In this document: positions 1-45,492 of the stretch, piece after piece
Numbering within the stretch: position 1 is the stretch's first letter
Layout: each line of letters begins with the position of its first letter
Source of the DNA: an uncultured Lachnospiraceae bacterium
Lineage (GTDB): Bacteria > Bacillota > Clostridia > Lachnospirales > Lachnospiraceae
Length of the DNA stretch: 45,492 nt
NCBI GenBank assembly: GCA_905193085.1
Contig: CAJJNI010000001.1
Location: 1 to 45,492, forward strand
Direction: 5' to 3'
Program-made: the position numbers and the translations under genes
Notes under the pieces: model-generated
Databases searched by the model: none
What the model was told of the DNA's origin: nothing
What the model saw: the letters and a program-made list of their open reading frames with translations, nothing else

Positions 1-54
1 ACCCACCTATGAGCAAGCTCATGTGGGTTTAGACCTTTTGACCCTGGCATCATA
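1..54 (+). repeat. Left copy of a perfect 54-bp direct repeat, cut by the window edge; identical to 14897..14950
   Basis: Base-by-base comparison. ACCCACCTATGAGCAAGCTCATGTGGGTTTAGACCTTTTGACCCTGGCATCATA occurs at both sites, and identity stops at the same base (55 vs 14951). It contains the hairpin ACCCAC-CT-ATGAGC / GCTCAT-GTGGGT. Confidence 0.9.
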
Positions 55-103
55 ATAAGTAACATCCTGATTAAATATATCACAACAGTCAGGCAGATAC
101 AAT

Positions 104-132
104 TCATTTTTTTACGGAAATATACATATATT
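104..132 (+). promoter_or_regulatory. Possible sigma-E-type (mother-cell) promoter upstream of the bofA-like gene
   Basis: TCATTTT, 14-nt spacer, CATATATT. This resembles the Bacillus sigma-E consensus (xCATATT-N14-CATACAxT). The match is weak and judged by eye only. Confidence 0.3.
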
Positions 133-167
133 AAAAAAAATGTTACAACAATAAGGTAAGTGATTTT

Positions 168-362
168 GTGAAAATTTTAAAGGGACTGTTTAAGATTATA
201 ATTCGTCTTGGATTTGGAACTTTTGGTATATACATATTAAACACAATTCTTTCATTGACGGGTTTTTCTGTAAGTGTGGGAATTAATTTATACACAATCG
301 GACTTCTTGCAGTTATGGGTCTTCCTGCTCTTATTATCTGTTATGGAATGCTATCAATATGA
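168..362 (+). CDS. bofA: BofA-like small integral membrane protein (inhibitor of pro-sigma-K processing family)
   Basis: 64 aa with two TM segments. The C-terminal half LNTILSLTGFSVSVGINLYTIGLLAVMGLPALI resembles the BofA pattern LN..G..IPINL.T....G.LG.PG. GTG start 9 nt after AAGGTA. Confidence 0.55.
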   Translation: MKILKGLFKIIIRLGFGTFGIYILNTILSLTGFSVSVGINLYTIGLLAVMGLPALIICYGMLSI

Positions 363-523
363 CGAATAATGTGTTAAAAAAGTGCACAAAATTTCAGTGC
401 CGAATTTGTTACATTTTAACAATGCATATACCGAGTGATTCTACATAATATCAAAAAATCAATACAAAGTAAAAATGCAAATTTGTATGCAATGTCAAAA
501 ATAAAAAATTTGATTTAAAACGC

Positions 524-552
524 TTTACAAAATCTGACAATTTTTTTATAAT
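524..552 (+). promoter_or_regulatory. Sigma-A-type promoter for the Tad/Flp operon
   Basis: TTTACA (524-529), 17-nt spacer, TATAAT (547-552). It lies about 45 nt upstream of the GAGGAGGGG RBS at 591-599. Confidence 0.6.
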
Positions 553-601
553 GCAGTCACATGAAAGATATCTTGATTGAACAAACAGATGAGGAGGGGT
601 A

Positions 602-1120
602 ATTTTAGAAAGTTGTAAAATTGTATTTTTAATTATTATTTTAGTAAGCAGTATAATAGTTGATTTAAAGACTGACAGGATAAGCAACAGAATTATTATT
701 TCAGGTCTGGCAGTTGCATTGGCAGATTTATTTATTCATTTTAGTTTATCGAAATTTATTTATGTGGGGTTTGGTTTATGTATTCCGGTTATATGTTTAC
801 TTCCTTTATTTTATTTTCATATGCTGGGGGCAGGAGATATTAAGCTGTTAGCAGTAACAGGAGCTTTTCTTGGCTGGAAAAGTCTTGTTGTATGTTTTAT
901 GGGGGCGTTATTTGTTGGGGGAATAATTTCTGTGTACAAAATGTGCAGATATCATATTTTTCAAAAGCGTTTCGCTTATTTTTCTCATTATATGAAAATG
1001 TATTTAAAAACAGGCTGTGTTAAGCCATATTATGACAGTAGTCTGGAAGCTGGTGCAAAAGTTCATTTTTCTGTTGCTGTAACTATAGCTGTTGTGCTGT
1101 ATTTGATTGTTGTAAAGTAA
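602..1120 (+). CDS. tadV: A24-family prepilin peptidase (TadV/CpaA-like), copy 1; 5' end uncertain
   Basis: Second catalytic motif GAGDIKLL lies in the tracked ORF (719..1120). The same frame stays open back to 593 and encodes ILESCKIVFLIIILVSSIIVDLKTDRISN, which is a TM helix plus the first catalytic Asp motif (D....I.N). No ATG/GTG/TTG lies between the RBS (591-599) and 719, so an ATT start (602 or 620) is inferred. Confidence 0.7.
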   Translation: MLESCKIVFLIIILVSSIIVDLKTDRISNRIIISGLAVALADLFIHFSLSKFIYVGFGLCIPVICLLPLFYFHMLGAGDIKLLAVTGAFLGWKSLVVCFMGALFVGGIISVYKMCRYHIFQKRFAYFSHYMKMYLKTGCVKPYYDSSLEAGAKVHFSVAVTIAVVLYLIVVK

Positions 1121-1125
1121 ATGAA

Positions 1126-2130
1126 ATGGGGTGGGATTATTTATTGAAAAAGAAAATTGGTATATTTGAGGAGGTTGCGTACTCATACCGTCTGATGCAG
1201 AGACTTAATCAAAAAGTGGATTCTTCTTTTGTAGTATACAGCTTTTCTGAGAAAGAGAGCATGGAAGATTTCCTCAATGAAAATTCATTGAGCGTACTTC
1301 TTGTAGGAGAAGACTATTATGATGGTTATCTGGAAGATTGCGATATAAGTAACATTATAATACTCAGCGAAGATAAAGAGCAGATTAAAGACAGACCATG
1401 TATATATAAATATCAGGCGGCAGGAAGTATTTTAAAAGAATTAAAGCTGAAATTAAATATGACAATAGGGTGTGGTATCGACAATGAGTCTGCTGTGAAA
1501 ATAATAGGAGTATATTCTCCTGTTGGAATGTGTGTGAAAACAGGCCTTGCTGTAAATTTATCAAAGAAGTTAGGAGAAACTAACAATGTTCTTTATTTAA
1601 ATTTGTCACCGTTTTGTGGCACAGAGCTTATTGAAATGTTAAGTGGAGAGAAAAAATCAGATGAATTTGCACAAAAGTGGTCGCTGTCAGATGTATTTTA
1701 TTATGCGGAACAGGGGGGTGATTACGGGGAAATATTTGCAAAGTCAATTGCAGAGTGTGGTGGAGTTAAATTGTTTTTGCCGATGGAGTCTCCGGTAGAT
1801 TTGCAGAGTGTTGAGCTGGAGAAATGGAATGACTTTTTCATGAGTTTAAACAGGGGTGATATAGCGCAGATGATAGTTGTTGATTTTGATGAGACAGTCA
1901 GCTGTTATCTCCAGTTATTTGAGCTGTGTGAAAAGATATATATGCCTGTGGCAAAACATTATTATGCTGAACAAAAAGTTAAGAATTTTGATGCATTTAT
2001 AAAAAGGTGTATGACCGGGGAAGTTGGCAAAAAAATACACAGAATATTTATCGGGGAAGATATTCCTGATGACAGTTCTTTTGAAAACTATATAAAAAGT
2101 ATTGTAAAGGGACTGATAAATGATGGATAG
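1126..2130 (+). CDS. TadZ/CpaE-like pilus assembly protein (ParA/MinD fold with degenerate P-loop, receiver-like N-domain)
   Basis: Sits immediately upstream of cpaF. The stretch IIGVYSPVGMCVKTGLAVNLSKKLGE occupies the place of the deviant Walker A (KGGxGKT). An alternative TTG start at 1144 lies 8 nt after GGGGTGGG. Confidence 0.55.
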   Translation: MGWDYLLKKKIGIFEEVAYSYRLMQRLNQKVDSSFVVYSFSEKESMEDFLNENSLSVLLVGEDYYDGYLEDCDISNIIILSEDKEQIKDRPCIYKYQAAGSILKELKLKLNMTIGCGIDNESAVKIIGVYSPVGMCVKTGLAVNLSKKLGETNNVLYLNLSPFCGTELIEMLSGEKKSDEFAQKWSLSDVFYYAEQGGDYGEIFAKSIAECGGVKLFLPMESPVDLQSVELEKWNDFFMSLNRGDIAQMIVVDFDETVSCYLQLFELCEKIYMPVAKHYYAEQKVKNFDAFIKRCMTGEVGKKIHRIFIGEDIPDDSSFENYIKSIVKGLINDG

Positions 2131-3331
2131 AAATACATTTGATAAATGTAGAAGAGAGTTAAGAAAAATTGTTCTGTCAAAAATAGATTGTTTTAATGAT
2201 ATAGAAGATGAGGAAGTGTATAAGTGGATAGATGAAGCGCTTATGGAGAAATGCAGAACCGTATATTTATCTATTTCTGACAGAAAACAATTGAGGCTTG
2301 AAATTTTCAATTCGTTAAGAAAGCTTGATGTACTTCAGGAAATAGTTGACTGTCCGGATATTACGGAGATTATGGTGAATGGAACGGAGCATATATTTAT
2401 AGAAAAAGCGGGTCAGATATATGAATGGGACAGACATTTTGAAAGTCATGAAAAGCTATGGGATGTGATACAGCATATAGTATCAAAAACAAACCGTATT
2501 GTAAATGAATCATCTCCGATAGTTGATACAAGACTTGAAAATGGTTCGAGAGTAAATGTTGTACTGCCGCCAATAGCAATAAATGGTCCGATTGTCACCA
2601 TAAGAAGATTTCCGGAAGAGGCAATTACAATGGAAGGATTGCTTAAGCTTAATTCAATTGATGAGCCTACAGCGTATTTTCTGGAAAAGCTTGTCAAAGC
2701 AAAATATAACATAATCATAAGTGGAGGAACCGGTTCGGGGAAGACAACTTTTTTGAATGTACTTTCAGAGTTTATTCCTAAAGATGAAAGAATAATAACA
2801 ATAGAAGATGCTGCCGAACTTCAGATAAGAGGGATTGCAAATCTTGTAAGGCTCGAAACCCGTAACGCAAATTCAGAAGGAAAAAATGAAATTGGAATGA
2901 GGGAGCTTATAAAAAGTGCCTTGCGAATGCGCCCGGACAGAATAATTATTGGAGAAACAAGGGGAGCTGAGTGTGTGGAACTTCTTCAGGCAATGAATAC
3001 AGGGCACGATGGGTCAATATCAACAGGGCATGCCAACAGTGCGTCTGATATGCTTGCCAGAATGGAGATGATGGTTCTTATGGGTATGGATATACCACTT
3101 GTAGCAGTTCAAAGACAGATTGCATCTGCTATAGATATTATAATTCATCTGGGAAGAATGAAAGATAAAAGCCGTAAAGTTCTGGAAGTTGTTGAGGTGG
3201 AGGGGTATAAGAATGGTGAATTTATGTTGAATCCTTTAGTAAAGTTTGTTAGTGAAGGGGAAAAGAATAATAAAATATATGGGAAATATGAGGTGTGCGG
3301 ACAACTTAAAAATGACTTTAAGTTAAATTAA
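2120..3331 (+). CDS. cpaF: CpaF/TadA secretion ATPase (VirB11/GspE superfamily)
   Basis: Walker A GGTGSGKTT, Asp box IITIEDAAEL, RPDRIIIGETRGAE and His box GHDGSISTGHANS. Overlaps the upstream gene by 11 nt. Confidence 0.93.
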   Translation: MMDRNTFDKCRRELRKIVLSKIDCFNDIEDEEVYKWIDEALMEKCRTVYLSISDRKQLRLEIFNSLRKLDVLQEIVDCPDITEIMVNGTEHIFIEKAGQIYEWDRHFESHEKLWDVIQHIVSKTNRIVNESSPIVDTRLENGSRVNVVLPPIAINGPIVTIRRFPEEAITMEGLLKLNSIDEPTAYFLEKLVKAKYNIIISGGTGSGKTTFLNVLSEFIPKDERIITIEDAAELQIRGIANLVRLETRNANSEGKNEIGMRELIKSALRMRPDRIIIGETRGAECVELLQAMNTGHDGSISTGHANSASDMLARMEMMVLMGMDIPLVAVQRQIASAIDIIIHLGRMKDKSRKVLEVVEVEGYKNGEFMLNPLVKFVSEGEKNNKIYGKYEVCGQLKNDFKLN

Positions 3332-3383
3332 AAATGAAAAAAAGAGAAGTATTCAGGAAGGCTTATTGTTTGAGGGGGATAGT

Positions 3384-4145
3384 ATGAAAAAAAGTGCTCT
3401 GAAATATGTTGATTATAATCATATTAAATTTACTTATATGCAGTTATTTATGGAATGTTTTAAGGGTATTTGTCTTATTGCAGTAATCAGTTATCTGTTT
3501 TACCGCTCGGTTATTGCATTTGTATTTTGTCTTCCGTTGCTTGTATTGTTTTTAAAATATCAGAAGACAAAATTTATAAATGAAAGAAAACAAAATCTTC
3601 AGATACAGTTTAAAGAAGGAATAACTGTTCTTTTATCAGGACTTGAAGCCGGGTATTCAATAGAAAATGCATTTGAAGATGCCTGCGGTGAATTAAGACA
3701 GATGTATGAAAAAGAGACAGATATAGAAAAAGAATTTCAGAATATATGCTGTGGTGTAAGGTTAAATGAACCGATTGAAGAAATGATAATGAATTTTGCA
3801 TCAAGAAGTCATATAGATGATATTAAAAGTTTTGCACAGGTATTTATGATTGCAAAGAAAAGGGGTGGAGATATGCCTGCTGTTTTAAAATCATCTATAG
3901 GAACTATTCAGGAAAAGTTAGAGGTAAGGCAGGAAATAGATACGATATTATCAGGCAAAAAATTAGAACATAGTATTATGTCTGTTGTACCGGCGGCAAT
4001 ATTGTTTTATGTAAACCTTACATCACCGGAATTTACAGAAGTGTTATATTCCTGTATTGCCGGAAGAATTGTTATGACAATATGCCTTATAGTATATATT
4101 ATTTCCATAATTGTTGGAAGAAAAATAGTTGATATTGAAATCTGA
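3384..4145 (+). CDS. tadB: TadB-like inner-membrane platform protein (T2SS F-domain family)
   Basis: Position after cpaF. N-terminal TM pair, a cytoplasmic helical domain (FAQVFMIAKKRGGDMPAVLKSSIGTIQEKLEVRQEI) and C-terminal TMs. ATG at 3384 follows GAGGGGGA; the tracked TTG at 3366 is less likely. Confidence 0.8.
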   Translation: MKKSALKYVDYNHIKFTYMQLFMECFKGICLIAVISYLFYRSVIAFVFCLPLLVLFLKYQKTKFINERKQNLQIQFKEGITVLLSGLEAGYSIENAFEDACGELRQMYEKETDIEKEFQNICCGVRLNEPIEEMIMNFASRSHIDDIKSFAQVFMIAKKRGGDMPAVLKSSIGTIQEKLEVRQEIDTILSGKKLEHSIMSVVPAAILFYVNLTSPEFTEVLYSCIAGRIVMTICLIVYIISIIVGRKIVDIEI

Positions 4146-5524
4146 TGGGAGGAGATTTTATTAAGAGCACAATTTTTGATAAGCTGGGAGAAAAAACATA
4201 TTGTTTAATTAGAAAGTATAAATTATTCGACAGTTATTTCTTAAAAATGGGAGATAAACTTAAAGTGGTTCATGCTGAAAATACACATAAAGATTTGTTA
4301 AAGTCGTATATGGCACATAAATTTAAGCTTATATATGAATTTATGATTGTGGGAGTATTTCTTGTGATATTGGCATTTAATGTGTTTTATTCAGAGAAAG
4401 GTATTACCGAATTAGAGCGGCAGGATTTATGGGGGGAAGATGAGGAAAGACAATTACTTGCAAAGACGGAAGATGGCGAAAGTCTGGTAGATATTACAGT
4501 TTCACATAAACAGGTTTCAGAGGATACAATGCGTCTTATTATGGAAGAAAAAGCAGAACAGCTTGAATCGTATATTTTAGGTGAAAACAAATCAACAGAC
4601 AGTATAAGTTCTGATTTAAATCTTATTACAAAGGTTCCTGACACAGATATCGATGTTTGCTGGGAGATTGAAGAAAATGATGTGCTTAACTCTGACGGAA
4701 GCGTGGTACAGGAAAATCTTAATCAAGACGGAGCTTTGGTAAAGCTTAAGGCGGTATTAAGCTTTAAAGAAATTACAACGGAAAATGAATTTTTTGTAAA
4801 TGTAGTACAACCTGAGTGTAGTGATTTGGAAAAAGAACAGTTAAAGCTTGTTAATATTCTTAAAGAGGCAGATGAAAATACCGTATCAGAAGACCGTCTT
4901 GTGCTGCCCGGGAAAGTAGATAATAAAAACATAACATATACTGCTGTAGATAATAAAAATAATATTTGGATTATTCCTGTAATGATGTTAATCTGTATTC
5001 CATTATTATTTTTATCTGAAGATGAGAAACTTAATAAGCAGAAGAAAGTAAGAGAAAATCAGATGCTTGCAGATTATCCGGATATTGTTAATAAATTAAT
5101 TTTGTATCTTGGTGCAGGACTTACAATACAGGGAGCTTTAGATTTAATATCCCGAAATTATCTTGCGCAGAAAAAACAAAATAAAACATACAAAAGGTAT
5201 GCGTATGAAGAGGTGATGTATGTCTGCAGAAAAATTCAGGGTGGTGCAGGTGTTACAGAAGGGCTTGAAATTTTATCACAAAGATGTGCTGTAGCACCGT
5301 TTAGAAAGTTATGTATGATTCTTATGCAAAATATGAAAAAAGGTTCGGGTGAACTTATAGCACTGCTTCATCATGAAGCCGCAGGTGCTTTTGAAGTAAG
5401 AAAAAATTCTGCGAGAAAAATGGGAGAAGAAGCCGGAACAAAGCTGTTATTTCCAATGATTATGTCATTGGGAGTAGTAATTATAATTTTAATTGTTCCG
5501 GCATGGATGACATTTCAGGTATAG
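4145..5524 (+). CDS. tadC: TadC-like platform protein carrying an insert of about 190 aa between TM1 and TM2
   Basis: The C-terminal 170 aa has T2SS-F character (LADYPDIVNKLILYLGAGLTIQGALDLIS ... GEEAGTKLLFPMIMSLGVVIIILIVPAW). Start overlaps the tadB stop (ATGA). Confidence 0.75.
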   Translation: MGGDFIKSTIFDKLGEKTYCLIRKYKLFDSYFLKMGDKLKVVHAENTHKDLLKSYMAHKFKLIYEFMIVGVFLVILAFNVFYSEKGITELERQDLWGEDEERQLLAKTEDGESLVDITVSHKQVSEDTMRLIMEEKAEQLESYILGENKSTDSISSDLNLITKVPDTDIDVCWEIEENDVLNSDGSVVQENLNQDGALVKLKAVLSFKEITTENEFFVNVVQPECSDLEKEQLKLVNILKEADENTVSEDRLVLPGKVDNKNITYTAVDNKNNIWIIPVMMLICIPLLFLSEDEKLNKQKKVRENQMLADYPDIVNKLILYLGAGLTIQGALDLISRNYLAQKKQNKTYKRYAYEEVMYVCRKIQGGAGVTEGLEILSQRCAVAPFRKLCMILMQNMKKGSGELIALLHHEAAGAFEVRKNSARKMGEEAGTKLLFPMIMSLGVVIIILIVPAWMTFQV

Positions 5525-5540
5525 GTAAGGGGGATTATTT

Positions 5541-5759
5541 ATGTTAAGGAATAATTTAATTTGTACAATGTATAACAGAAAAAGAAATATAATTAAGCTT
5601 TTATCTGATTTTATTAAGGAAGAAGATGGAATTGGAGTTGTTGAAATTATACTGATATTAGTAGTTTTGATAAGTCTTGTGTTGATTTTTAAAAGCAAAA
5701 TAACAAACCTTGTGAATTCTATATTTACAAAAATTACTAATAATGCAAATCAGGTTTAG
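5541..5759 (+). CDS. flp: Flp-family type IVb pilin precursor
   Basis: Charged leader ending EEDG, then IGVVEIILILVVLISLVLIF. This gives Gly at -1, Glu at +5 and a hydrophobic helix, which is the Flp processing-site architecture. The mature peptide would be about 42 aa. RBS AAGGGGGA. Confidence 0.8.
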   Translation: MLRNNLICTMYNRKRNIIKLLSDFIKEEDGIGVVEIILILVVLISLVLIFKSKITNLVNSIFTKITNNANQV

Positions 5760-5781
5760 ATAAGAGTCTGGAGGAGTTGAT

Positions 5782-7308
5782 TTGAGGCGGGGAGAATTAA
5801 CAGTTTTTTTTGCAATGGTATTTATACTGATAGTTGCATTGCTGTCTTCTCTTGTTGAAGTATCAAGGCGGCAGGGAGTGCGTATGCAGGTCGTGACTGC
5901 AACTGATGCGGCATGTGAGTCTGTGTTTGCAGAGTATGATACAAAAATGCTTGAAAAATTTAAAGTGTTTTTTTATGACGGTGCTTATGGGGCAAATGAC
6001 AGTATTGAAAATAATATTTTAAGTAAGGTTGGCAGTGATATAAATATAATGCTTAATCCACAAGATGAAATGATGGGTTCATATACAGATTTATATAAAA
6101 TATCTGTAAATGACAGTGAATTAAAATCGGTAGTGCTGGCAACAGATGATGAGGGAATGGTATTCAGGGAACAGGCAATTTTATCAGTAAAGGACAGATA
6201 TGGAATTTCATATGCCGAAGATTTACTGTCAAAAACTGATATTCTTAAGAAAAACATAGAAGATGGAAATTCTTATAAAGAGGCGGAAGAGAGTAATAAT
6301 GAGCAGATTAAATCTTTTGAGGAGCAAAAGACCCAGATAGACAAAGAGAATAAAGAGGCAGCGAAGCAGGCTGCGGCCAATGAAAATCCGGCTGCGGCAG
6401 TCGAAGTAAAAAAATCTCTTGGAATATTAGAACTTGTAAAGCCGGATAATTATACGGTGTCGCAGATGCAGATAGATACATCAGTTATGCCATCAAAAAG
6501 ACAGTTGAATAAGGGGAGCGGTATGAAATCTTATTCAGAAGATGTATTATCTGATGTGCTGTTTAATGAATATTTATTTAATACATTCAGTTGTGCTGTC
6601 ATGGGAGAAGCTGAACAGGAAAATAAACAGCAGAATACACAGACGAATTTACAGAGCAATATTTTAAATTATCAGTTGGAATATCTTCTTTCCGGAAAAG
6701 AAAATGATACAGATAATTTAAAAGCTGTAGCAGAGAAATTGCTTTTAATCAGAGAGGGGGCAAATTTTGCATATTTACTTACTGATGGAATTAAAACTGC
6801 GCAGGCGGAAACTCTGGCTGTGACATTAGTTGGATATACAGGACTTGTACCTCTGATTGAAGCAACTAAATATGCAATTCTTGCTTCATGGGCTTTTGCT
6901 GAAAGCTGTTATGATGTAAAAAGATTACTGTCGGGTAAAAAAGTTTCTGTCATAAAGAACAGTGCTAACTGGCAGCTTGAATTGTCTAATATATCAAACT
7001 TAACTTCGCAGGAATTAAAAGATGATAGTGATGGAATTACATATATGTCATATTTGAAGCTGTTGTTGTTACTTGAGCCGCAGAGAAATATTGCAAAAAG
7101 ATGTATTGATATGGTTGAGATGCTTATGTGCGTTGAGGAATTTTATGAGGAATTTAAATTAGATGCAATGATATGTGAAATGAAATTAAAAATTAAATTT
7201 TATTCAGACAGTGTATTTTATATGTTTCCATTTATGCATAAATATATCTGGAATCCTACAAGTGTATATATTGCAGAGAGAAATTATTCATACAATATGT
7301 GGCGTTAG
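5782..7308 (+). CDS. Large TadE/TadG-like pilus-associated protein (N-terminal pseudopilin-like anchor, coiled-coil/acidic middle)
   Basis: The N-terminus RRGELTVFFAMVFILIVALLSSLVEVSRRQG is TadE-like. Located in the Tad operon. TTG start after GGAGGAG. Confidence 0.55.
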   Translation: MRRGELTVFFAMVFILIVALLSSLVEVSRRQGVRMQVVTATDAACESVFAEYDTKMLEKFKVFFYDGAYGANDSIENNILSKVGSDINIMLNPQDEMMGSYTDLYKISVNDSELKSVVLATDDEGMVFREQAILSVKDRYGISYAEDLLSKTDILKKNIEDGNSYKEAEESNNEQIKSFEEQKTQIDKENKEAAKQAAANENPAAAVEVKKSLGILELVKPDNYTVSQMQIDTSVMPSKRQLNKGSGMKSYSEDVLSDVLFNEYLFNTFSCAVMGEAEQENKQQNTQTNLQSNILNYQLEYLLSGKENDTDNLKAVAEKLLLIREGANFAYLLTDGIKTAQAETLAVTLVGYTGLVPLIEATKYAILASWAFAESCYDVKRLLSGKKVSVIKNSANWQLELSNISNLTSQELKDDSDGITYMSYLKLLLLLEPQRNIAKRCIDMVEMLMCVEEFYEEFKLDAMICEMKLKIKFYSDSVFYMFPFMHKYIWNPTSVYIAERNYSYNMWR

Positions 7309-7330
7309 TTTTTATGGGAGGTGAATAAGG

Positions 7331-8254
7331 ATGCCCTTTTTCGAAAATAAATCAAATTCTATTAATTTTTACTCTCTGTTTAATTATAGCAAAACTCCCC
7401 TTCGTATTTTTATACATTCTAAAAAAGTGCTGATACGAAAAAGGGTATCCTTATTTGCCTTGTGTAAAAAAGCGTCATTGACAGTTGAGGCAGCATTAAT
7501 TTTTCCGTTTTTTGTATGTGCATGCATAATGATTCTATATTTTGGAGAGTTATTCAGGCTTGAGACAAGAATTACACAGGAGCTTTATAATTCTTCAAAA
7601 ACATATGCACAGTATGCGGGGCTGCTTGCAAATGGAGATATGGAAGAGAGTCAGTTAATGAAAGCAGGTATTTCTGGTATTGGTATTTACCAGATATCGC
7701 AGTCATTTAAAAATAATCTGGGTGAAGAGTTTAATGACAAATTTCTTATGACTAAAGGAAACTTATCATATTCTTTTTTACATTCAAAGATTGATGAGGA
7801 TTATGTTGATTTGGTGGTAACATATCGTGTTAAATTTAATATTCCGCTTTTATCATTTAAGGCAATTCCGATAGTTCAAAGATGCAGATTCAGTTCATGG
7901 AGTGGAAGACAGAGAATAAAGAAGTCAGGTGATGATGATACAATAGTCTATGTTACCTCAACCGGAACAGTTTATCATAGAAGCAGGGATTGTACATATA
8001 TTAGATTGTCAATACAGAATGTAAAGTACAGTGATGTCGGTTCAAAGAGAAATGAAAGTGGAGCAAAATATTATCCATGTGAAAAATGTTTCAAAAAAAC
8101 CACTTTGGGAGAGGTGGTTTACATAACGAATACAGGAACAAGATATCATAATAATATAAATTGCAGTGAGCTTAAAAGAACTGTACATGAAGTAAGATTA
8201 TCTGATGTGAAAGATACAAAAAGACCATGTAACAAATGTGGAAATTCAGAATAA
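7331..8254 (+). CDS. TadE-like pseudopilin fused to two C-terminal His/Cys3 zinc-ribbon-like modules
   Basis: TadE-like segment KKASLTVEAALIFPFFVCACIMILYF. Two repeats of VY(V/I)T.TGT.YH-x4-C ... PC.KC occupy residues 205-253 and 261-303. ATG follows GGGAGGTG. Confidence 0.7.
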   Translation: MPFFENKSNSINFYSLFNYSKTPLRIFIHSKKVLIRKRVSLFALCKKASLTVEAALIFPFFVCACIMILYFGELFRLETRITQELYNSSKTYAQYAGLLANGDMEESQLMKAGISGIGIYQISQSFKNNLGEEFNDKFLMTKGNLSYSFLHSKIDEDYVDLVVTYRVKFNIPLLSFKAIPIVQRCRFSSWSGRQRIKKSGDDDTIVYVTSTGTVYHRSRDCTYIRLSIQNVKYSDVGSKRNESGAKYYPCEKCFKKTTLGEVVYITNTGTRYHNNINCSELKRTVHEVRLSDVKDTKRPCNKCGNSE

Positions 8255-8288
8255 AGAGGGGGGATGAACAATATATAAGCATATTATT

Positions 8289-8705
8289 TTGATTAAATTT
8301 ATAAGTCTTATGCTAATGCTTATACCTGAAATGATATTGGATATAAGAACGAAAAAAATATGGGTTCCATGGATTGTTATTTTTTTCATTGAGGCAGTAA
8401 TACTTGCCATTATGCGTATTATTGGATGGGGAGAATTACTGTATGGAATTATACCGGGAATTTTGTTAGTTATAATAAGTATATTAACAAGAGGGGCAAT
8501 TGGATTGGGGGACGGATATATAGTATGTGTAATAGGAAGTTTGTTTGGTCTGGAAAATACAGTGGCAGTGCTTGTTATTGCTATGCTGATATCTGCTTTT
8601 GCAGGAGGAATACTTATGTTAATAAGACATTGGAAAAGAAAAGATACAATTCCTTTTGTTCCATTTCTACTCATAGGGGTAATGCTACAACTTCTGAATT
8701 TGTAG
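8289..8705 (+). CDS. A24-family prepilin peptidase (TadV-like), copy 2
   Basis: Both Asp motifs are present: EMILDIRTKKI and GAIGLGDGYIV. Polytopic membrane protein of 138 aa. TTG start with no nearby RBS; the AGAGGGGGG at 8254-8263 instead serves a 4-codon ORF (ATG AAC AAT ATA TAA). Confidence 0.7.
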   Translation: MIKFISLMLMLIPEMILDIRTKKIWVPWIVIFFIEAVILAIMRIIGWGELLYGIIPGILLVIISILTRGAIGLGDGYIVCVIGSLFGLENTVAVLVIAMLISAFAGGILMLIRHWKRKDTIPFVPFLLIGVMLQLLNL

Positions 8706-8749
8706 ATGATAAAAACAAAACATTTGCAGATGCATTTTATACGGTTGAA

Positions 8750-9163
8750 ATGTCTCTTCTTATGCCTTTATTGATTGGCATTATTACAATGATGATGTAT
8801 TTGGGGTTTTATGTTAATGACAGAATGGTTTTAGAAGAGGCTGCTAAAGAGACTGCGGTATACTGTGCTTCAAATTTCCCGGATGACATTGAAAATATAA
8901 ACAAGATAGCGGGACAGAAATTTAATGACAATATTAGTAGAAGATTGTTTTCGGTAAATAACATAAGTTATACCGCTCAGGAAAATAATGACTGCATAAA
9001 TGTAAAAGTAAAAGCAGATTTTATAATTCCTGTGTTTGCTCAATTGAGAAAAGAGTTGTTTGGTTCTGATATTAAAATAGAAGTTGAAGGACAGGGAGTT
9101 GTGACAAGGCCTGTCAGGACAATTTGGAAAACAAAAATAATAGAAAAAATTTTAGATAACTGA
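8750..9163 (+). CDS. TadE-like pseudopilin; true start probably upstream of 8750
   Basis: The frame-2 ORF encodes ..FADAFYTVEMSLLMPLLIGIITMMMYLGFY, a TadE TVE motif plus TM helix. The first in-frame ATG is at 8750, inside the motif. The tracked 8426 start overlaps the peptidase gene and is not credible. Confidence 0.6.
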   Translation: MSLLMPLLIGIITMMMYLGFYVNDRMVLEEAAKETAVYCASNFPDDIENINKIAGQKFNDNISRRLFSVNNISYTAQENNDCINVKVKADFIIPVFAQLRKELFGSDIKIEVEGQGVVTRPVRTIWKTKIIEKILDN

Positions 9164-9177
9164 AAGGGGAGAGTAAG

Positions 9178-10449
9178 GTGAATGCCGAGTATGTAAGAAA
9201 TCTGAATCATAATTATATTAAGGTAAAATCTGAAGATGATTTTTTTGAATATCAATTGCAGATGATTATGAGAAATGAGATAGAGGGTTTATTGAGCTGT
9301 AAGGTTGAGAGAAGTAATAATGAAGTATATTTTTTATATGAAATAAATTCAAAACTGCCATTTGTACAGGTGTTTGAGAGAAAGAAAATGAATATGGAGG
9401 CTTTTAGTGCACTTGTTTTATGTCTGAAAAATGCAGTTGAAAATGCAAGTGAATATTTACTTGATGTAAACAGTATAGTGCTTACTCCTGAATATATTTA
9501 TATGAATCCGGAGACAAAGGAAGTAAGTCTGCTTTATGTTCCGGGAATGTGGAGTGATATAAAGGAAGAATTCAGGGAACTTACAAGGCAGCTGCTTGAA
9601 TGGATAGATTATGATGACGATGCAGTTGTAAAGGCAGCATATCAGTTAAATAACAGTACGGTAGAGGAAAATTATTCATTTGAAGAAATTTTAAATAATA
9701 TATTGTTTAAAGATGATGAGAAATCTGACAGTGAGACAGATAATAAATATGATGATGAAATAAATTATGAAAATACTGAAAAACAATATGAATATAGTAA
9801 CAAACATAGCAAGTCGGAAAATTATATAAATCAACAAGACTCTGGACCTGATAATTATAATTTATATGAAGATGATATTGATGCCGAAGATGAACGCCGG
9901 CAATCTATATTGAAAAAGATAACGACGCCTGTTATACAGGCTGCGGGAAGTTTTTTAAAGAATCTTGAACTGTTTCATAAAGATAATGAAGAATATATTG
10001 ACAATGAAGATGGTGAAGAAGAGTTTTATGAGCAGCCGGCTAAAAAAATTATTAGTTATTCTTCTTATACTCAGAATTACAGAAACTATGATATAGCGGC
10101 TGAAGAAGGAACATATGGAAATACGGTTCTTTTTAAAGAGAATAAGGACAGAGGGAAAATTATTGTTCCGATTAATGCTGATAAATATAATTCATTTGAG
10201 TTAAATATATTTCCTTTTATTATAGGTAAGCTTGTGGAGGCGGTAGATGGAGTTATAGAAGATGACTCTGTAAGCAGAATACATGCAAAAATAGAAAAGA
10301 GTGACGGACAATTTTATTTTGTAGATTTAAATTCTACAAACGGTTCGTTTGTTAATGGACAGAGTGCTCCACCAAACAGCAGAGTAAAACTCAATGTTGG
10401 AGACAGGATACAGTTTGGTCATGTAGAATATAAATTTGAAAATATATAA
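9178..10449 (+). CDS. FHA-domain protein, last gene of the Tad cluster
   Basis: C-terminal FIIGKLVEAVDGVIEDDSVSRIHAKIEKSDGQFYFVDLNSTNGSFVNGQ...GDRIQFG is a canonical FHA signature (G-R/K...S.xH...NGT/S). Acidic, Tyr/Asn-rich linker. GTG start after AAGGGGAGAG. Confidence 0.8.
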   Translation: MNAEYVRNLNHNYIKVKSEDDFFEYQLQMIMRNEIEGLLSCKVERSNNEVYFLYEINSKLPFVQVFERKKMNMEAFSALVLCLKNAVENASEYLLDVNSIVLTPEYIYMNPETKEVSLLYVPGMWSDIKEEFRELTRQLLEWIDYDDDAVVKAAYQLNNSTVEENYSFEEILNNILFKDDEKSDSETDNKYDDEINYENTEKQYEYSNKHSKSENYINQQDSGPDNYNLYEDDIDAEDERRQSILKKITTPVIQAAGSFLKNLELFHKDNEEYIDNEDGEEEFYEQPAKKIISYSSYTQNYRNYDIAAEEGTYGNTVLFKENKDRGKIIVPINADKYNSFELNIFPFIIGKLVEAVDGVIEDDSVSRIHAKIEKSDGQFYFVDLNSTNGSFVNGQSAPPNSRVKLNVGDRIQFGHVEYKFENI

Positions 10450-10517
10450 ATATTAAAATAAAATTATTCCTTAATTATTTCAAAATTGTTATATTTGTTT
10501 ATTTATAATTTGTAAAA

Positions 10518-10526
10518 TGGTATAAT
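10518..10526 (+). promoter_or_regulatory. Extended -10 promoter element (TGgTATAAT) upstream of the dockerin protein gene
   Basis: TGGTATAAT at 10518-10526, about 65 nt upstream of the TTG start. The -35 is weak. Confidence 0.45.
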
Positions 10527-10590
10527 AGGCTATTGGTTAAGGTAAGTTTGTTACAAGATGATTTTTCATAATAAATAGGAGGAATAATTA

Positions 10591-13500
10591 TTGAGAAAAG
10601 AAAAAAATGTTAAGAACAGAGCAATGAGACGTAAAATGTTAAAAAAATCAGGAAAGAAACTTCTGGCTGCGGCACTTAGTGCAGCAATGTTGTCTATGGG
10701 AATTTATCCGGCGGGTTTCCCTGTTAATGTAAGTGCAGAAGAGGCGGTAGCACAGGTGGCAGATGCGGTTGCTTATAAGGCAAAGGTCGATATCAGTAAG
10801 CTTTCACCGATAAATGGTGTTATTACATATGATATTACAGAAGACGGAAATTACTACTTTGAGGGAAGTAATAACTTTAATGAATCCTACATACCTACAA
10901 GTATTATAGTTGCTCCGGGAGTTAAGGCAGGTATTTATTTTGATGGTGTTGATATTGAAAATTATGATGGTGAGATAGCAGGTTGTGGTGGTTCCATGTA
11001 TATAGAGGGGACAACTCCTGTATATATATCAGAATATGCACAGGTTTCATTACATACACTCAATAAATCGACTATTAAGCTGGCAGACAATGCTTCAGCA
11101 ATAGTTGTCAGCAAAAATGCATATTGTGAAATTAATGATGATTTAGAATTAGATGTTGAAACGGATTGTTATTCTACAGGCATAGATGTTGCCGGAACTT
11201 TTGAAATGAATGGAGGAATATTGTATATTGAGGGAGACGGTGGTTCTGTAGGTATAGGTGTTTGTGATATATATGCTACAGAGGATTATTCTGACAGTAA
11301 CATTATTATAAATGATGGAACACTTGATATCTATACGGTGAATGCTCCGGCAATAGGAGTATATGCAGGTTATGAGAGTTCTGCTGATAAAAAATATAAT
11401 TTTGGAAACATTGAGATACATGGTAGTCAGATAGTTGCAAATACGACAGGTGGAGTTTCAACGATTGGAGTACGTGATTATGATTACAGCAAAGTTTACA
11501 GTGAATGCAACGGTATAATTATAGATGGTGGAAATTTAACTTTAGAGCAAAACATTTGGCGTGGTGATGGAAATAAACCGGCTGTTTATCCGGGCAAAGA
11601 AGTTACAGATGGTGCAGTTGTAATAGCGGGTGGAAATATATATAATACTGTATCTGATTTGTATGATGAAAGTTTAAGTTCTGAAATAAAAATAAAAGAC
11701 AGGTTTGGAGGTAATGATGTATCTCGTAAAGTCCTTACATTGTCTGAACAGACAGAGCGTGAAATAATAAATATTACTTCATGCGATGCAGATGGCAATT
11801 CATATTACTATGGAAATAATGATATGAAAACAGATAAGGAAGGAAAATTATATACATATCTTTCAGATGGAATGACAACTGTTCAGGTTGCATTGTCTGA
11901 TAGAAGCATTATGGAAGGAACCGTTTCAGGAGATGCAGCAGAACTTTCCCTGATTGAAGATAAATCAAATGTTCCGGTATTTTCAAAATCACATTATAGT
12001 TTCAATTATAATGATGAATTGACAATTGATACACCAACAGTTGGCGCAGATTGTGATATTTCATATAGCTATGCGGAAAAGAAGACACCTGATGCGGCAC
12101 CTCAGGATAATACACAGTGGACAAAATTATCATCGCTTTCAGATGTTAAATCATTAAAAACGGGTGCATATTGGCTTAAAGCTTCGTCTTCTGATGCTCA
12201 GGCAGGTGGTGTGACTTACAGGGCAGCGGATACAATTGTTTCAGTAAATGTGAAATCGTGTAATAATCATATGTGTGATAACTGGGTTGTTAATGAAGAA
12301 AATGATGCCGTAGAGACAGCAGTATGCTCCATATGTGGAGAGACTGTTTACAGAACACATGATTATTCAGATAAAACAGGAGTATGTAAGAACTGTAAAT
12401 ATAAATGCAGGCATACATCATTAAAGTATGAATATCAGACAGAAAAGTCGCATGAAATCGTATGTCGTGCATGTGGATATTCAGAATCCGTGGAACATAA
12501 CTGGCAGGAGAATCTTGGCACAGTAAAAGAAGCGGGATATACTTTTGCGTATGATGAAGAGAGCTCTTCGTGGATTAGTGATACATCTTGTATTGATAGT
12601 TCTACTGCAAAGACAGTGTGGATATTTGATATGGAACAGGAAGGTACAGTGTCATTTGAGTGGGGTGTGTCCAGTGAAGAAAATTATGACTATTTGAATG
12701 TTTTTCTTGATGAAGATAGCGTTTATGAACAGAAAATAATAGATAAAAAATCTGGTAATGAGTCATCTGGATATATAACTGGTGAGGCTGTAACACCAGA
12801 ATTAACTGCCGGGCAGCATATGCTGACAGCGTATTATGTTAAAGATAGTGGCACCAGAGAGGGTTTAGATAAAGCATATATTAAGTTTTCATCTGATTTT
12901 AAATATTCAGAGGTAAAAGGAAATACTAATACTTCAAATTCAGGATTTGAGTATGATGAAGAGAGACAAAGATGGACATGCAATGGTTACCAAGAAGATA
13001 ATGATGGAAACAATAGTAAAAAAATCGGTTTAACTATAACCTGTGAAGAAGACTGTAAATTGCCATTTCATATCGGATTGCCTCAATGTGGTGAAGTTTA
13101 TATGAGTTCAAATAGTTTAGAAAGGTCTTTGAATTCAAATGATGAAATGCTCTGGATTAATTTTAATAAGGGAAATAATAATTTATTCTTTGAATGGTAT
13201 TGGGAACCGGAAGATGCGGAAGCGGCATCTAATGAAGCGTTTTATATAGAATACATTCCGGCAGCTTCACATATATGTGTTGATTGTGGATATTTAGACG
13301 ACCATGAATATTCTTCAGAATGTGATGAGGACTGTAATATTTGCGGACAACTTCGCACACCTTCTGAAACACATAAGTACAGTTCAGATTGTGATACAGT
13401 CTGCAATGATTGTGGTTATCAGAGGAAAGTACAGGCAGAACATCAGTTCGGCGCAGACGGCAAGGCTGATAAATGCGATAATTGCGGTGTTTTGAATATT

Positions 13501-14724
13501 GCGGGTATGAAGTTTGATAATGATAAGCTCAGGCTTATATACAATGCCAAAGAACAGTGTCCGGAAATTGTATTAAAGGATTCAGAGGGAAATGTTATTT
13601 CTTCGGATAAATACAGTGTTGAAATTACATCTGAATCAGCAGTTTCAACAGAAGATGGTTATACATTTACAGTAAGCGGAAATGGTGTAGATGCTGTTGG
13701 AAGCCAGTCTGGAAAATGGAGTATAGAATATCTTTCTACAGATGCAGAAGCAATAGCCGAAGGCACAAAAAAGACTGACAGTGAATGGTTTAACTCAGAT
13801 GTCAAAATTAAAGCACCAACAGGCTATTTAATTGCAAACAGCAATGGCGCTGATGCTGTCTGGACAGATTATCTTGAACAGGATAGACGTAGTGCAGCAA
13901 TTGTTGTAAGTGAAGATGGAAGCACTTATATAACATATTATCTTAAAAATATTTCAACAGGCGGAATCACAGATGCAAAATCTGTTTTAATTAAGAAAGA
14001 TTCATCTGTTACAACATTTGAAGTAAAAACTGCTACAGGAGAAGCAGCAGGTCTTGCGTCAGATGATGACAGTGTCAGAGTAACTTTCTTTGCAGAAGAT
14101 TTACTCAGCGGTATTGATAATGTTAAGTATTCTCTTGATGGTAAAGACGAAGTGAGTGTTGTAAGTGGAGACAGTATACTTATTACAGCACCGGGAGTAC
14201 ATGTGTTGACTGCAACAGCAAGTGATAAGGCAGGAAATATTGCTTCAAGTCAGATACAATTTACAATTTCAGAGAAACCGGACGAGACACCAAACCCAGG
14301 TGAAACACCAAGCCCAGGCGAGACACCAAACCCAGGTGAAACAGAGAAACCAGGCGAAACACCAAACCCAGGTGAAACAGAGAAACCAGGCGAAACACCA
14401 AACCCAGGTGAAACAGAGAAACCAGGCGAAACACCAAACCCAGGTGAGACACCAAGCCCAAGTGAAACACCGAAGCCGAGTGAAACTCCAACTCCAAGTG
14501 AAACACCAACCCCAGCTACTCTGGCGGGAGATGTTGACTGTAATAATAAGGTTGATTTAAATGATGCCATAATCGTATTAAAACTTGCATTAGGTATACC
14601 TGTTGAAGTAACAGAACAGGGTAGGGTAAATGCAGATTATGACGAGAATGGAAAGATAAATCTCAGTGATGCTCAATATACGCTCAAAGCAGCTTTGGGA
14701 ATTAAAGTTAATTTATCAAAGTAG
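10591..14724 (+). CDS. Very large secreted multidomain protein with C-terminal type-I-like dockerin
   Basis: Signal peptide (KKLLAAALSAAMLSMG...VSA/EE). Beta-helix-like G/D/I-rich repeats in residues 90-330. Two CxxC-rich clusters, beta-sandwich and Ig-like segments, and a PGETPN/PGETEK linker. Duplicated Ca-binding dockerin segments GDVDCNNKVDLNDAIIVLKLALGI and NADYDENGKINLSDAQYTLKAALGI. TTG start 8 nt after AGGAGG. Confidence 0.85.
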   Translation: MRKEKNVKNRAMRRKMLKKSGKKLLAAALSAAMLSMGIYPAGFPVNVSAEEAVAQVADAVAYKAKVDISKLSPINGVITYDITEDGNYYFEGSNNFNESYIPTSIIVAPGVKAGIYFDGVDIENYDGEIAGCGGSMYIEGTTPVYISEYAQVSLHTLNKSTIKLADNASAIVVSKNAYCEINDDLELDVETDCYSTGIDVAGTFEMNGGILYIEGDGGSVGIGVCDIYATEDYSDSNIIINDGTLDIYTVNAPAIGVYAGYESSADKKYNFGNIEIHGSQIVANTTGGVSTIGVRDYDYSKVYSECNGIIIDGGNLTLEQNIWRGDGNKPAVYPGKEVTDGAVVIAGGNIYNTVSDLYDESLSSEIKIKDRFGGNDVSRKVLTLSEQTEREIINITSCDADGNSYYYGNNDMKTDKEGKLYTYLSDGMTTVQVALSDRSIMEGTVSGDAAELSLIEDKSNVPVFSKSHYSFNYNDELTIDTPTVGADCDISYSYAEKKTPDAAPQDNTQWTKLSSLSDVKSLKTGAYWLKASSSDAQAGGVTYRAADTIVSVNVKSCNNHMCDNWVVNEENDAVETAVCSICGETVYRTHDYSDKTGVCKNCKYKCRHTSLKYEYQTEKSHEIVCRACGYSESVEHNWQENLGTVKEAGYTFAYDEESSSWISDTSCIDSSTAKTVWIFDMEQEGTVSFEWGVSSEENYDYLNVFLDEDSVYEQKIIDKKSGNESSGYITGEAVTPELTAGQHMLTAYYVKDSGTREGLDKAYIKFSSDFKYSEVKGNTNTSNSGFEYDEERQRWTCNGYQEDNDGNNSKKIGLTITCEEDCKLPFHIGLPQCGEVYMSSNSLERSLNSNDEMLWINFNKGNNNLFFEWYWEPEDAEAASNEAFYIEYIPAASHICVDCGYLDDHEYSSECDEDCNICGQLRTPSETHKYSSDCDTVCNDCGYQRKVQAEHQFGADGKADKCDNCGVLNIAGMKFDNDKLRLIYNAKEQCPEIVLKDSEGNVISSDKYSVEITSESAVSTEDGYTFTVSGNGVDAVGSQSGKWSIEYLSTDAEAIAEGTKKTDSEWFNSDVKIKAPTGYLIANSNGADAVWTDYLEQDRRSAAIVVSEDGSTYITYYLKNISTGGITDAKSVLIKKDSSVTTFEVKTATGEAAGLASDDDSVRVTFFAEDLLSGIDNVKYSLDGKDEVSVVSGDSILITAPGVHVLTATASDKAGNIASSQIQFTISEKPDETPNPGETPSPGETPNPGETEKPGETPNPGETEKPGETPNPGETEKPGETPNPGETPSPSETPKPSETPTPSETPTPATLAGDVDCNNKVDLNDAIIVLKLALGIPVEVTEQGRVNADYDENGKINLSDAQYTLKAALGIKVNLSK
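14284..14513 (+). repeat. In-frame tandem repeat encoding the Pro/Thr/Glu linker
   Basis: Three perfect 36-bp units (14332..14367, 14368..14403, 14404..14439: CCAGGTGAAACAGAGAAACCAGGCGAAACACCAAAC) sit inside a degenerate 18-bp periodicity. Confidence 0.9.
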
Positions 14725-14778
14725 TTTTAAAATTTAATATAATATTATATAAAGATGTCTGGGGCAAAAGTCCCCAAT

Positions 14779-14950
14779 TATGATGCCTACGGATTGCTCC
14801 GCACTATGTGCTCCCGCACCTCTACCCAATATTCGCATATCGTGGGATTAACATCCCACTTTTATGCTCATATCGGGGCGGGTCACAAAGTCTTTCACCC
14901 ACCTATGAGCAAGCTCATGTGGGTTTAGACCTTTTGACCCTGGCATCATA
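14779..14950 (+). ncRNA. Candidate structured element of about 172 nt: 6S-like rod-shaped sRNA or MITE-like repeat; identity unresolved
   Basis: Clearly GC-richer than its flanks. TATGATGCC (14779-87) pairs with GGCATCATA (14942-50). CCCGC (14813-17) pairs with GCGGG (14878-82). GCATA (14835-39) pairs with TATGC (14863-67). Apical hairpin GTGGGAT-TAAC-ATCCCAC (14842-59). A 28-nt side hairpin lies at 14897-14924 in the 3' strand of a large internal loop. The last 54 nt are repeated at 1..54. Confidence 0.35.
14897..14950 (+). repeat. Right copy of the 54-bp perfect direct repeat
   Basis: Identical to 1..54. Confidence 0.9.
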
Positions 14951-14964
14951 TAAAATCTAAATGT

Positions 14965-15000
14965 ATACACCAGCCTGTGTTTATATGGCTGGTGTATTTA
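14965..15000 (+). terminator. Rho-independent terminator-like hairpin downstream of the dockerin gene and structured element
   Basis: Perfect 11-bp stem ATACACCAGCC (14965-75) / GGCTGGTGTAT (14987-97), 11-nt loop, followed by TTTA. It lies inside the N-terminus of the tracked ORF 14961.., arguing against that start. Confidence 0.6.
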
Positions 15001-15029
15001 CTAATATGATGAAAGAGAGGTCAATGCCT

Positions 15030-15938
15030 ATGGTGGATAGGAGTTATCCTGATAAAACATCAGTAAATATTTGTTTTACATGTAATCAGAAATATATTCC
15101 ACATTGTGAGACTGCAATATATTCCTTGCTTTGTAATGCATCAGAAGAGCGGTATTATGATATACTTATCCTTCATAAAGATATTAACAGTCGTTGGCAG
15201 GACAGGGTGAAACAGCTTGAAATGCTTTTGCCTCATGCAACTATCCGTTTTGTTCATATTAAAGAACCATATCTTATAAAAAAATATAAGACGCCCGGGT
15301 ATCTGTCAATTGAATCAACATACCGTCTGTTGTTGTTATCACCAGATTATGGTCAGTATGACAGAATGATATATATGGATAGTGATGTTATAGTAGAGGG
15401 GGATATTTCAGAACTCTTTGATTTGGATTTACAGTCAAATGCAATTGGAGCAATGGAATGTCTTGTAAGCCGGTATGATTCTTATTTAAAGCGTGCATTA
15501 TTTGCAGATAATAAGCCATACAATATTGATGCCTATAAGAGAAATGTACTTAAATTAAGATTTCCAGATAAATATTTTCACAGTGGTGTGATTTTGTTTG
15601 ATTTAAATAAAGCAAGACAGATTGCTGATGAGCAGCGGCTTATTGAAATACTCACAACCCATTATTATCAGGGTGGAGATAAGGAAACACTTAATATTGC
15701 TTTTAATGAGTCAGTATATTTAATAGAACCAAAATGGAATTATCTTAATGCATTAGAACTTCTGAAAAATAATAAAGATAAAAATGTATCAGATATGTAC
15801 AGTGATATATCAGATGAGAAAGCAATAATACATTATGTTGGAGTGGCTAAACCGTGGGATACAGAAGTAGTTTTAGGAGAACATTACAATAAGTATCGAA
15901 AATTATGTGATGAATATATCCGGACTAAGAAAATTTAA
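15030..15938 (+). CDS. Family 8 glycosyltransferase (LPS galactosyl/glucosyltransferase-like, GspA-like)
   Basis: YMDSDVIVEGD (DxD motif) and FHSGVILFDL are typical GT8 motifs. The ATG at 15030 is chosen because it lies 9 nt after AAGAGAGG; ATGs at 15006 and 15024 are alternatives. Confidence 0.75.
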   Translation: MVDRSYPDKTSVNICFTCNQKYIPHCETAIYSLLCNASEERYYDILILHKDINSRWQDRVKQLEMLLPHATIRFVHIKEPYLIKKYKTPGYLSIESTYRLLLLSPDYGQYDRMIYMDSDVIVEGDISELFDLDLQSNAIGAMECLVSRYDSYLKRALFADNKPYNIDAYKRNVLKLRFPDKYFHSGVILFDLNKARQIADEQRLIEILTTHYYQGGDKETLNIAFNESVYLIEPKWNYLNALELLKNNKDKNVSDMYSDISDEKAIIHYVGVAKPWDTEVVLGEHYNKYRKLCDEYIRTKKI

Positions 15939-15942
15939 AATT

Positions 15943-15984
15943 AACAGCTCCATCTACTACTATAAAATAATATATGGAGCTGTT
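15943..15984. terminator. Hairpin between convergent genes (GT8 and porB), probably a bidirectional terminator
   Basis: Perfect 11-bp stem AACAGCTCCAT / ATGGAGCTGTT with a 20-nt loop and T-rich flanks on both strands. Confidence 0.55.
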
Positions 15985-16040
15985 GTAATATGTATTATTT
16001 AGTTGTCTGTTAATTATATAAATTTATAATCTGTTGTTTT

Positions 16041-28389: not shown

Positions 28390-28435
28390 GAATCACTGTG
28401 GGCATGTATTTTGTTCACAGTGATTCTTTTGGTTT
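28390..28435 (+). terminator. Rho-independent terminator of nifJ
   Basis: Perfect 11-bp stem GAATCACTGTG / CACAGTGATTC followed by TTTTGGTTT. Confidence 0.85.
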
Positions 28436-28441
28436 ATAAAG

Positions 28442-28545
28442 AATTAACAGATGTAGCAGTAGTCTGATAAATTAGTAGCGTGGATTTATACATAATTAGC
28501 AGATGTAGCAGTAGTCTGATAAATTAGTAGCGTGAATTTTATATA
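28442..28545 (+). repeat. Two tandem 52-bp copies in the cyclophilin gene upstream region
   Basis: AATTA(A/G)CAGATGTAGCAGTAGTCTGATAAATTAGTAGCGTG occurs at 28442 and 28494 with 40 of 41 bases identical. Each copy is followed by an A/T-rich -10-like tail (GATTTATACAT / AATTTTATATA). Confidence 0.85.
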
Positions 28546-45409: not shown

Positions 45410-45492
45410 TCCTTTCTTAAGTTGAATTTATATATTATTTGCTGCTGTTTTGCATTAATTTTTCTTATATTTATTCGTAAAACTTCTTAATT

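Follow-up and report, generated by a model that had tools for sequence, protein, structure and literature searches.

The stretch of DNA considered here (the window) comprises 45,492 nt of contig CAJJNI010000001.1 from assembly GCA_905193085.1 of an uncultured Lachnospiraceae bacterium, and it opens on a repeat whose nature is the subject of this text. Behind the left copy of this repeat follow a bofA-like gene, a Tad/Flp pilus cluster (families Peptidase_A24, TadZ-like, T2SSE, T2SSF, Flp1_like, DUF5702 and FHA) and a gene for a repeat-rich protein, and behind these genes stands the right copy in the same orientation (Table 1). The left site is the spacer between an FGGY-kinase gene and bofA, the right site lies between the gene of the repeat-rich, dockerin-like protein and a GT8 gene. 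Both copies belong to the Clostridiales-1 RNA family (RF01699), and we propose that they are two independently inserted copies of an element of about 198 bp that contains the Clostridiales-1 core and resembles a miniature inverted-repeat transposable element (MITE), rather than the two ends of one unit (probability roughly 0.83). An initial annotation, made from the sequence letters alone, had read the pair as bracketing the whole pilus and adhesin module. Its gene calls between the copies hold for bofA, for the Tad/Flp cluster and for the 1377-aa protein as such; the dockerin assignment is weak, as the match stays below the cut-off.

The repeat itself is real: positions 1-54 and 14897-14950 agree in 54 of 54 bases, as had been stated, and no second long-range perfect repeat of this size exists within the 45-kb window. 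Within 45 kb, chance would practically never produce an exact match of 54 nt (about 1e9 position pairs x 4^-54). At both sites the identity stops one base after GGCATCAT, and this last shared base by coincidence opens two different target-site duplications, AAT at 54-56 and ATA at 14950-14952. The length of 54 nt is an edge effect, because the window edge cuts the left copy. At least 22 public contigs encode the protein at window 1126-2130. Ten conspecific contigs among these, L001-L010, were retrieved; they include a 785-kb contig of NCBI assembly GCA_041325675.1 and contigs of 100-190 kb. All ten read through window position 1 and carry a complete left element, with sequence differences and a target duplication of its own; the suspicion that the left copy was cut was therefore correct. 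In comparison with these contigs, the homology of the two copies extends over 206 nt without gaps (95-96% identity, window 14745-14950). They differ at 3-4 positions in the 172-nt core, and their perfect identity spans 78 nt in some strains and 129 nt in others. The expectation that the true repeat is a whole element thus stands, but the estimated size of about 172 nt does not: the element has 198 nt, plus the duplication. As the right copy is a minus-strand match to RF01699, window 1-54 is the first third, in RNA orientation, of a second minus-strand copy. The 54 shared bases before the flanks diverge fit the k-1 overlap of a contig break in a de Bruijn graph with k=55, and the window therefore probably begins where the repeat broke the contig. 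The far window end shows no such overlap feature.

In an Rfam scan of the whole window, RF01699 gave the single match above the gathering score (48 bits for this family), on the minus strand at the right copy. With the full model, the two copies score as listed in Table 1, and a third copy of the same species reaches 114.1 bits. This third, divergent copy lies about 4.3 kb past the window end at 45492 (L272 3260-3577, and also on L269-L271), with a 53-aa open reading frame (ORF) and a TrmB-like methyltransferase gene as neighbours; a partial 5' duplicate stands ahead of it, and a partial tandem duplicate of its 3' half (110-124 nt) follows in L269 and L272, but not in L270 and L271. The right copy folds at -90.1 kcal/mol on the minus strand (z -9.7) and at -72.4 kcal/mol on the plus strand (z -8.2). 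The four-stem junction P1-P4 is visible in the covariance-model alignment. From 30 diverse copies, RNAalifold predicted P2-P4, with compensatory changes in 29 of the 34 pairs; pair counts of P1, which was missed in the MAFFT/nhmmer alignments due to 3' misalignment in the gut subfamily, and of the 3' hairpin were not used. On the Rfam strand, G-U pairs are far more frequent than A-C pairs, and together with the compensatory changes this argues that the fold is selected on one strand. The selected molecule could be the RNA or one DNA strand, which these data do not separate. The motif has been described by Weinberg et al. 2010 (PMC2864571), who scored it as not cis-regulatory; there and in Rfam it is a small RNA (sRNA) gene of Clostridiales and the human gut, and its model ends at the P1 stem. 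This is the only description of the motif that we found in the literature, and no account of Clostridiales-1 as a mobile element or MITE was found there, nor any relevant work on MITEs in Lachnospiraceae or Clostridiales.

Beyond the published model, the element has the anatomy of a small transposable unit. In an alignment of diverse copies, conservation runs about 30-40 nt 3' of P1 and of the Rfam model, through a hairpin with the consensus GGGGKCAAAAUACCUUUUGACCCC (shorter in the window species, GGGGACUUUUGCCCC / GACCC) and then a tail ending in ...AACAUCAU. The complete elements are 185-216 nt long, with a mode of 198 nt, and their longest stop-free stretch is 68 codons, i.e. they are small and non-coding. 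They are bounded by imperfect 20-bp terminal inverted repeats (TIRs; ATGATRCCAGGGTCAAAAGG ... CYTTTTGACCCCRACATCAT), as the last 20 nt resemble the reverse complement of the first 20 (ATGATACCAGGGTCAAAAGG vs. reverse complement ATGATGTCGGGGTCAAAAGC), with inverted ends of the form ATGATRYCRGGGTCAAAAG. On average, 14.9 of the terminal 20 positions are complementary, in contrast to 4.7 in internal controls, and complementarity at TIR positions 1-5 and 10-19 is 80-99%. With element ends taken from the profile alignment (nhmmer), a duplication was counted when the 3 nt before ATGAT matched the 3 nt after ATCAT. Such a 3-nt duplication flanks 30 of 55 independent copies, and a 4-nt duplication flanks 11 more (3 or 4 nt: 40/55), whereas shuffled pairing averaged 6.1 and peaked at 14 over 5000 trials, and slid offsets gave 1-14. 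The duplications are AT-rich, yet they include GAC, TCC, AGT, GTAC and TTGC. In the window species, AAT/AAT surrounds the left copy and ATA/ATA the right copy (plus strand).

One orthologous site has been found in both states. It is empty in L163 (12541-12785) and filled in L197 and L180, with flanks that are about 93-98% identical; the filled allele of L197 reads ...GTTAT[TTAT]-element-[TTAT]ATATG..., as compared to ...ATTATTTATATATG... in the empty allele, and the Rfam model accordingly matches L163 once and L197 twice. The elements of L180 (1998-2197) and L197 (1718-1914) differ from each other by about 10%, and about 4 nt separate their positions within one TA-rich tract. This suggests a hotspot that was hit twice independently. 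The contig L163 also carries a TwoAYGGAY RNA (RF01731, 138 bits) at 22-191. Some copies are truncated or internally deleted, and head-to-tail tandem copies exist as well. As similar hairpins stand at both ends, an IS200/IS605-derived PATE/REP-like nature was considered, but it is ruled out by the clear TIRs and the 3-4-bp duplications.

The element is by no means restricted to this locus. A survey of species-representative genomes with a conserved 18-base motif pattern matched at least 120 stretches, nearly all of them in Lachnospiraceae. Muricomes intestini DSM 29489 contains at least seven loci that are mutually very similar and have sharp ends, UMGS96 contains at least five, and the window species has at least three copies within about 65 kb. 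In human-gut metagenome data, a 32-mer specific to the subfamily of the window recovered at least 120 stretches, with at least 60 flank contexts, 76 distinct cores and a locus GC content of 34-50%; the context of the window is just one among the metagenome stretches listed. The element stands at a contig terminus in about 17 of the 36 whole-contig metagenome matches, and the earlier suspicion of a multicopy sequence at an assembly break agrees well with this. The 150 non-redundant proteins of the nearest ORFs on either side match 180 Pfam families, none of them more than twice, and no transposase or Tad/pilus family is among the 25 flanking Pfam families listed. In co-directional spacers, 31 copies are sense and 27 antisense, i.e. 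there is no strand bias, and divergent spacers outnumber convergent ones by 28 to 6. The Clostridiales-1 element is a generic dispersed repeat in gut Lachnospiraceae that breaks many public assemblies. Three Clostridiales-1-like places were also noticed on a 243-kb plasmid of Butyrivibrio fibrisolvens (NZ_CP146964.1, e.g. 132011-132194), where nothing is annotated.

Is the pair nevertheless tied to the Tad module? Twenty conspecific loci were compared, ten per flank (L001-L010, and L133-L142 from the right flank, with several from the same contigs), and all 20 keep the element copy that they cover together with the full module; L133-L142 all contain the GT8 gene, the element, the dockerin-like gene and the Tad cluster. 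Among these 20 loci there was no deletion variant between the copies, and no hybrid or deletion junction of the two window copies appeared among the at least 120 metagenome matches, only one of which had the left context of the window. The nearest non-conspecific DUF5702 Tad homologues that were found (57%, 51% and 50% identical) lie on L143-L145, in the order PMT_2, MatE, FGGY, (bofA), Tad cluster, FHA protein, and then directly the TPP_enzyme_C/POR operon. These three relatives have no dockerin-like gene, no GT8 gene and, up to nhmmer E<=10, no Clostridiales-1 sequence. Their FGGY-bofA spacers are empty, though too diverged for base-level ends; in L143 this spacer measures 133 nt and aligns to that of the window species minus the element. 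From this synteny without repeats, the Tad cluster is ancestral at the site, and the genes of the dockerin-like protein and of GT8 are additions in this lineage, as are the two element copies.

Since each copy has its own intact duplication, the two are independent insertions and not the ends of one unit, and there has been no recombination between them. Nor does the locus fit a composite transposon or island, as there is no shared outer duplication and the module is invariant in the conspecific loci. No integrase or transposase lies between the copies, in accordance with the initial annotation. A role of the pair as marker or mobiliser of the Tad/dockerin module is not supported, because the element is dispersed over dozens of unrelated intergenic sites, as the genome matches and metagenome contexts show, and because the nearest relatives maintain the order FGGY-bofA-Tad-FHA-POR without any element. 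The initial annotation had itself named these two observations as refuting its reading. The suggested RecA-mediated deletion or amplification is physically possible, given the perfect identity over 78-129 nt, but the conspecific loci include no such variant.

Table 1. Coordinates of the repeat copies and of the genes around them (window positions unless a contig is named)
Feature	Position	Strand	Evidence or remark
Left element copy, 5' 53 nt only (RNA orientation)	1..53	-	same as 14897-14949; remainder beyond window
Left copy, profile match	3-60		nhmmer E 5.6e-9
Left copy, 5' TIR	34-53	-	within 1..53
Full left copy in conspecific contig L007	8731-8928 (L007)		RF01699, 142.4 bits
AAT target-site duplication, left element	54..56		partner off-window at L007 8728-8730; AAT at both ends in L003/L007
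bofA-like gene, first gene between the copies, outside the element	168..362	+	Pfam BofA, 31.9 bits
Tad/Flp pilus cluster	719..10449	+	Pfam families on conspecific contigs; same synteny in L143-L145
Repeat-rich protein of 1377 aa, weak C-terminal dockerin match	10591..14724	+	Dockerin_1, 18.5 bits < 22.9 cut-off
ATA target-site duplication, right element, 3' side (RNA orientation)	14749..14751
Right copy, complete 198-nt element	14752..14949	-	RF01699; ends by nhmmer
Right copy, 3' TIR and short hairpin	14752-14780	-
Right copy, Rfam core	14781-14948	-	RF01699, 140.1 bits, E 2.5e-32, model 1-166
Right copy, 5' TIR	14930-14949	-
ATA target-site duplication, right element, 5' side (RNA orientation)	14950..14952
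GT8 gene	about 14961-15938		lineage-specific, like the gene of the 1377-aa protein

Some further features of the locus were noticed on the way. The length of the dockerin-like protein varies by strain (1341, 1353, 1365 or 1377 aa) in steps of 12 aa, which correspond to two 18-nt units of a tandem 18-nt array at 14234-14521, and its gene is broken into several ORFs in L001/L133, L006 and L139, due to either frameshifts or long-read errors. In L140 (20002-20927), an IS110-family transposase (DEDD_Tnp_IS110, Transposase_20) occupies the place of the DUF5702 Tad gene of other strains. L133 and L135 are set apart by a 92-nt AT-rich indel at about 11026-11117, between the TPP_enzyme_C and GT8 genes (window spacer 15939-16040). 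Further repeats with an 18-nt period are found at the far window end (43613-44122), in two adjacent transglutaminase-core/dockerin genes that also contain a 169-nt repeat of 74% identity (42435-42603 / 44562-44730), and an intergenic pair of 52-nt tandem repeats, 92% identical, lies at 28433-28536.

What alternatives exist for two independent insertions of a MITE-like element? That the direct repeats delimit the Tad/dockerin module, either as substrates of deletion and amplification or as island ends, is quite improbable and already largely refuted. The copies share their orientation, and their perfect identity over 78-129 nt would in principle suffice for homologous recombination; at other loci in the metagenome data, one upstream flank is joined via the element to different downstream flanks in three cases (L147/L157, L153/L161 and L219/L156), which could reflect recombination or chimeric assembly. 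However, the matched AAT/AAT and ATA/ATA pairs speak against an exchange between the copies, hybrid junctions are missing from the metagenome matches, the conspecific loci keep module and covered copy, the relatives keep the Tad synteny without the repeats, and elsewhere the element is not associated with Tad genes. An assembly artefact, i.e. a k-mer carry-over of 54 nt from the right copy without any left copy, would explain why the window starts exactly 54 nt before the flanks diverge, as may be predicted from a k=55 graph overlap, but ten independent assemblies hold the complete left copy with its own differences and its own duplication, and this very improbable explanation is already refuted as regards the existence of the left copy.

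The remaining alternatives accept the RNA family but not its mobility. Copies of an ordinary, non-mobile Clostridiales-1 sRNA gene could have arisen by gene duplication, and the short flanking repeats would then be coincidences in AT-rich DNA. The Rfam type (Gene; sRNA), the strong covariation and the head-to-tail tandem copies would fit to this, and we regard it as improbable in view of the duplications, which far exceed the shuffled and slid controls and include GAC, TCC, GTAC and TTGC, of the 20-bp TIRs that lie outside of the Rfam core, of the empty and filled alleles, and of the truncated and internally deleted copies. In addition, no conserved -35 element or promoter is found upstream of the copies within one genome; likewise, matches to the consensus of element-borne or outward-facing hybrid promoters (e.g. 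TTGACC in the TIRs) are no commoner than in shuffled sequences. A cis-regulatory, riboswitch-like leader, with the 3' hairpin and tail as expression platform and the FGGY-kinase gene as the local target, is highly improbable. The left copy indeed lies about 70-95 nt upstream of the FGGY gene on the same strand, pairing of the 3' tail can alternate between the 5' end and a local mimic, and a terminator-like call has been obtained for the 3' hairpin of the right copy (the scan flags only this copy). Yet the 3' hairpin mostly lacks a U tract across the copies, the neighbours of the element are functionally unrelated, there is no orientation bias, 27 copies including the right one are antisense to both neighbours, and in the scoring of Weinberg et al. 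2010 (PMC2864571) the motif is not cis-regulatory.

Two independent insertions of a MITE-like Clostridiales-1 element hence explain the locus best, and several observations must be held against this reading. Of the 55 copies, 15 have no matching duplication; there is a single pair of empty and filled alleles, which lies in a TA-rich variable tract and makes the exact boundaries somewhat ambiguous; and the copy number of the source genome is known only as the three or more copies within about 65 kb. An autonomous element, i.e. a transposase between these TIRs, was not found in plasmids, in viral contigs or in the fetched loci, which amount to 2.4 Mb: the search for inward-facing TIR pairs 260-5000 bp apart and for solo TIRs gave only pairs of separate MITEs in the fetched loci, while the plasmids yielded one Butyrivibrio megaplasmid without annotation and the viral contigs a handful of copies. 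That the window start is a true contig end is something we infer from the overlap length. Finally, passive MITEs do not usually hold a four-stem fold that is conserved and covarying, and the proposed mechanism does not account for it.

Mechanistically, the element is probably mobilised in trans by a DDE-type transposase that would make a 3-4-bp staggered cut, for which a family with duplications of this size, such as IS3 or IS30, would be expected. Each insertion duplicates 3, sometimes 4, bp of an AT-rich target. The strand which folds into the conserved four-stem RNA probably is transcribed. It is rather unlikely, though worth considering, that the Clostridiales-1 fold (as RNA or single-strand DNA) is a working part of transposition or of its control, for example by recruiting, guiding or trans-regulating the transposase. 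The identification of the orphan motif of 2010 as a MITE with 3-bp target duplications, for which we found no earlier description, is far more probable.

For the Tad pilus/adhesin locus, this removes a tempting reading, as the locus is not a movable or switchable cassette bounded by repeats. For Clostridiales-1, an orphan RNA motif that is very frequent in human-gut DNA, it provides a first approach to the mechanism, as the motif behaves as a transposable element. At the same time it is a common interspersed repeat, and it breaks up the short-read assemblies of gut Lachnospiraceae. The biology is testable, since cultured hosts with many copies exist, such as Muricomes intestini DSM 29489. The question arises why a covarying four-way-junction fold is maintained in a MITE, and if it were true that the fold serves transposition, this would be a new kind of transposon that bears a structured RNA.

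How does the element compare with known systems? The window copies share with Clostridiales-1 (RF01699) the full-model match, the four-stem junction, the occurrence in Clostridiales and the human gut, and the absence of a consistent placement in 5' untranslated regions. In contrast to the published motif, which stops at P1, the unit described here is longer on its 3' side and has TIRs, target duplications and insertion polymorphism. With a composite transposon or island, the locus shares two repeats in the same orientation around a 14.7-kb block of genes for surface structures, but here the repeats have separate duplications, mobility genes are missing, conspecifics and relatives do not vary in whether they have the block, and its Tad part is ancestral. 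Parallels also exist to small bacterial MITEs. For the most part, Correia/NEMIS elements of Neisseria, RUP of Streptococcus pneumoniae and ERIC/IRU of enterobacteria make 2-bp duplications (TA) and have inverted ends that fold into one long hairpin. Like these, the Clostridiales-1 element is small, non-coding, intergenic and multicopy, with TIRs, short AT-rich duplications, presence or absence depending on the strain, and transcripts that would fold. Unlike these, it duplicates 3-4 bp, and its interior forms a multi-branched fold that has conserved loops and abundant compensatory changes across genera.

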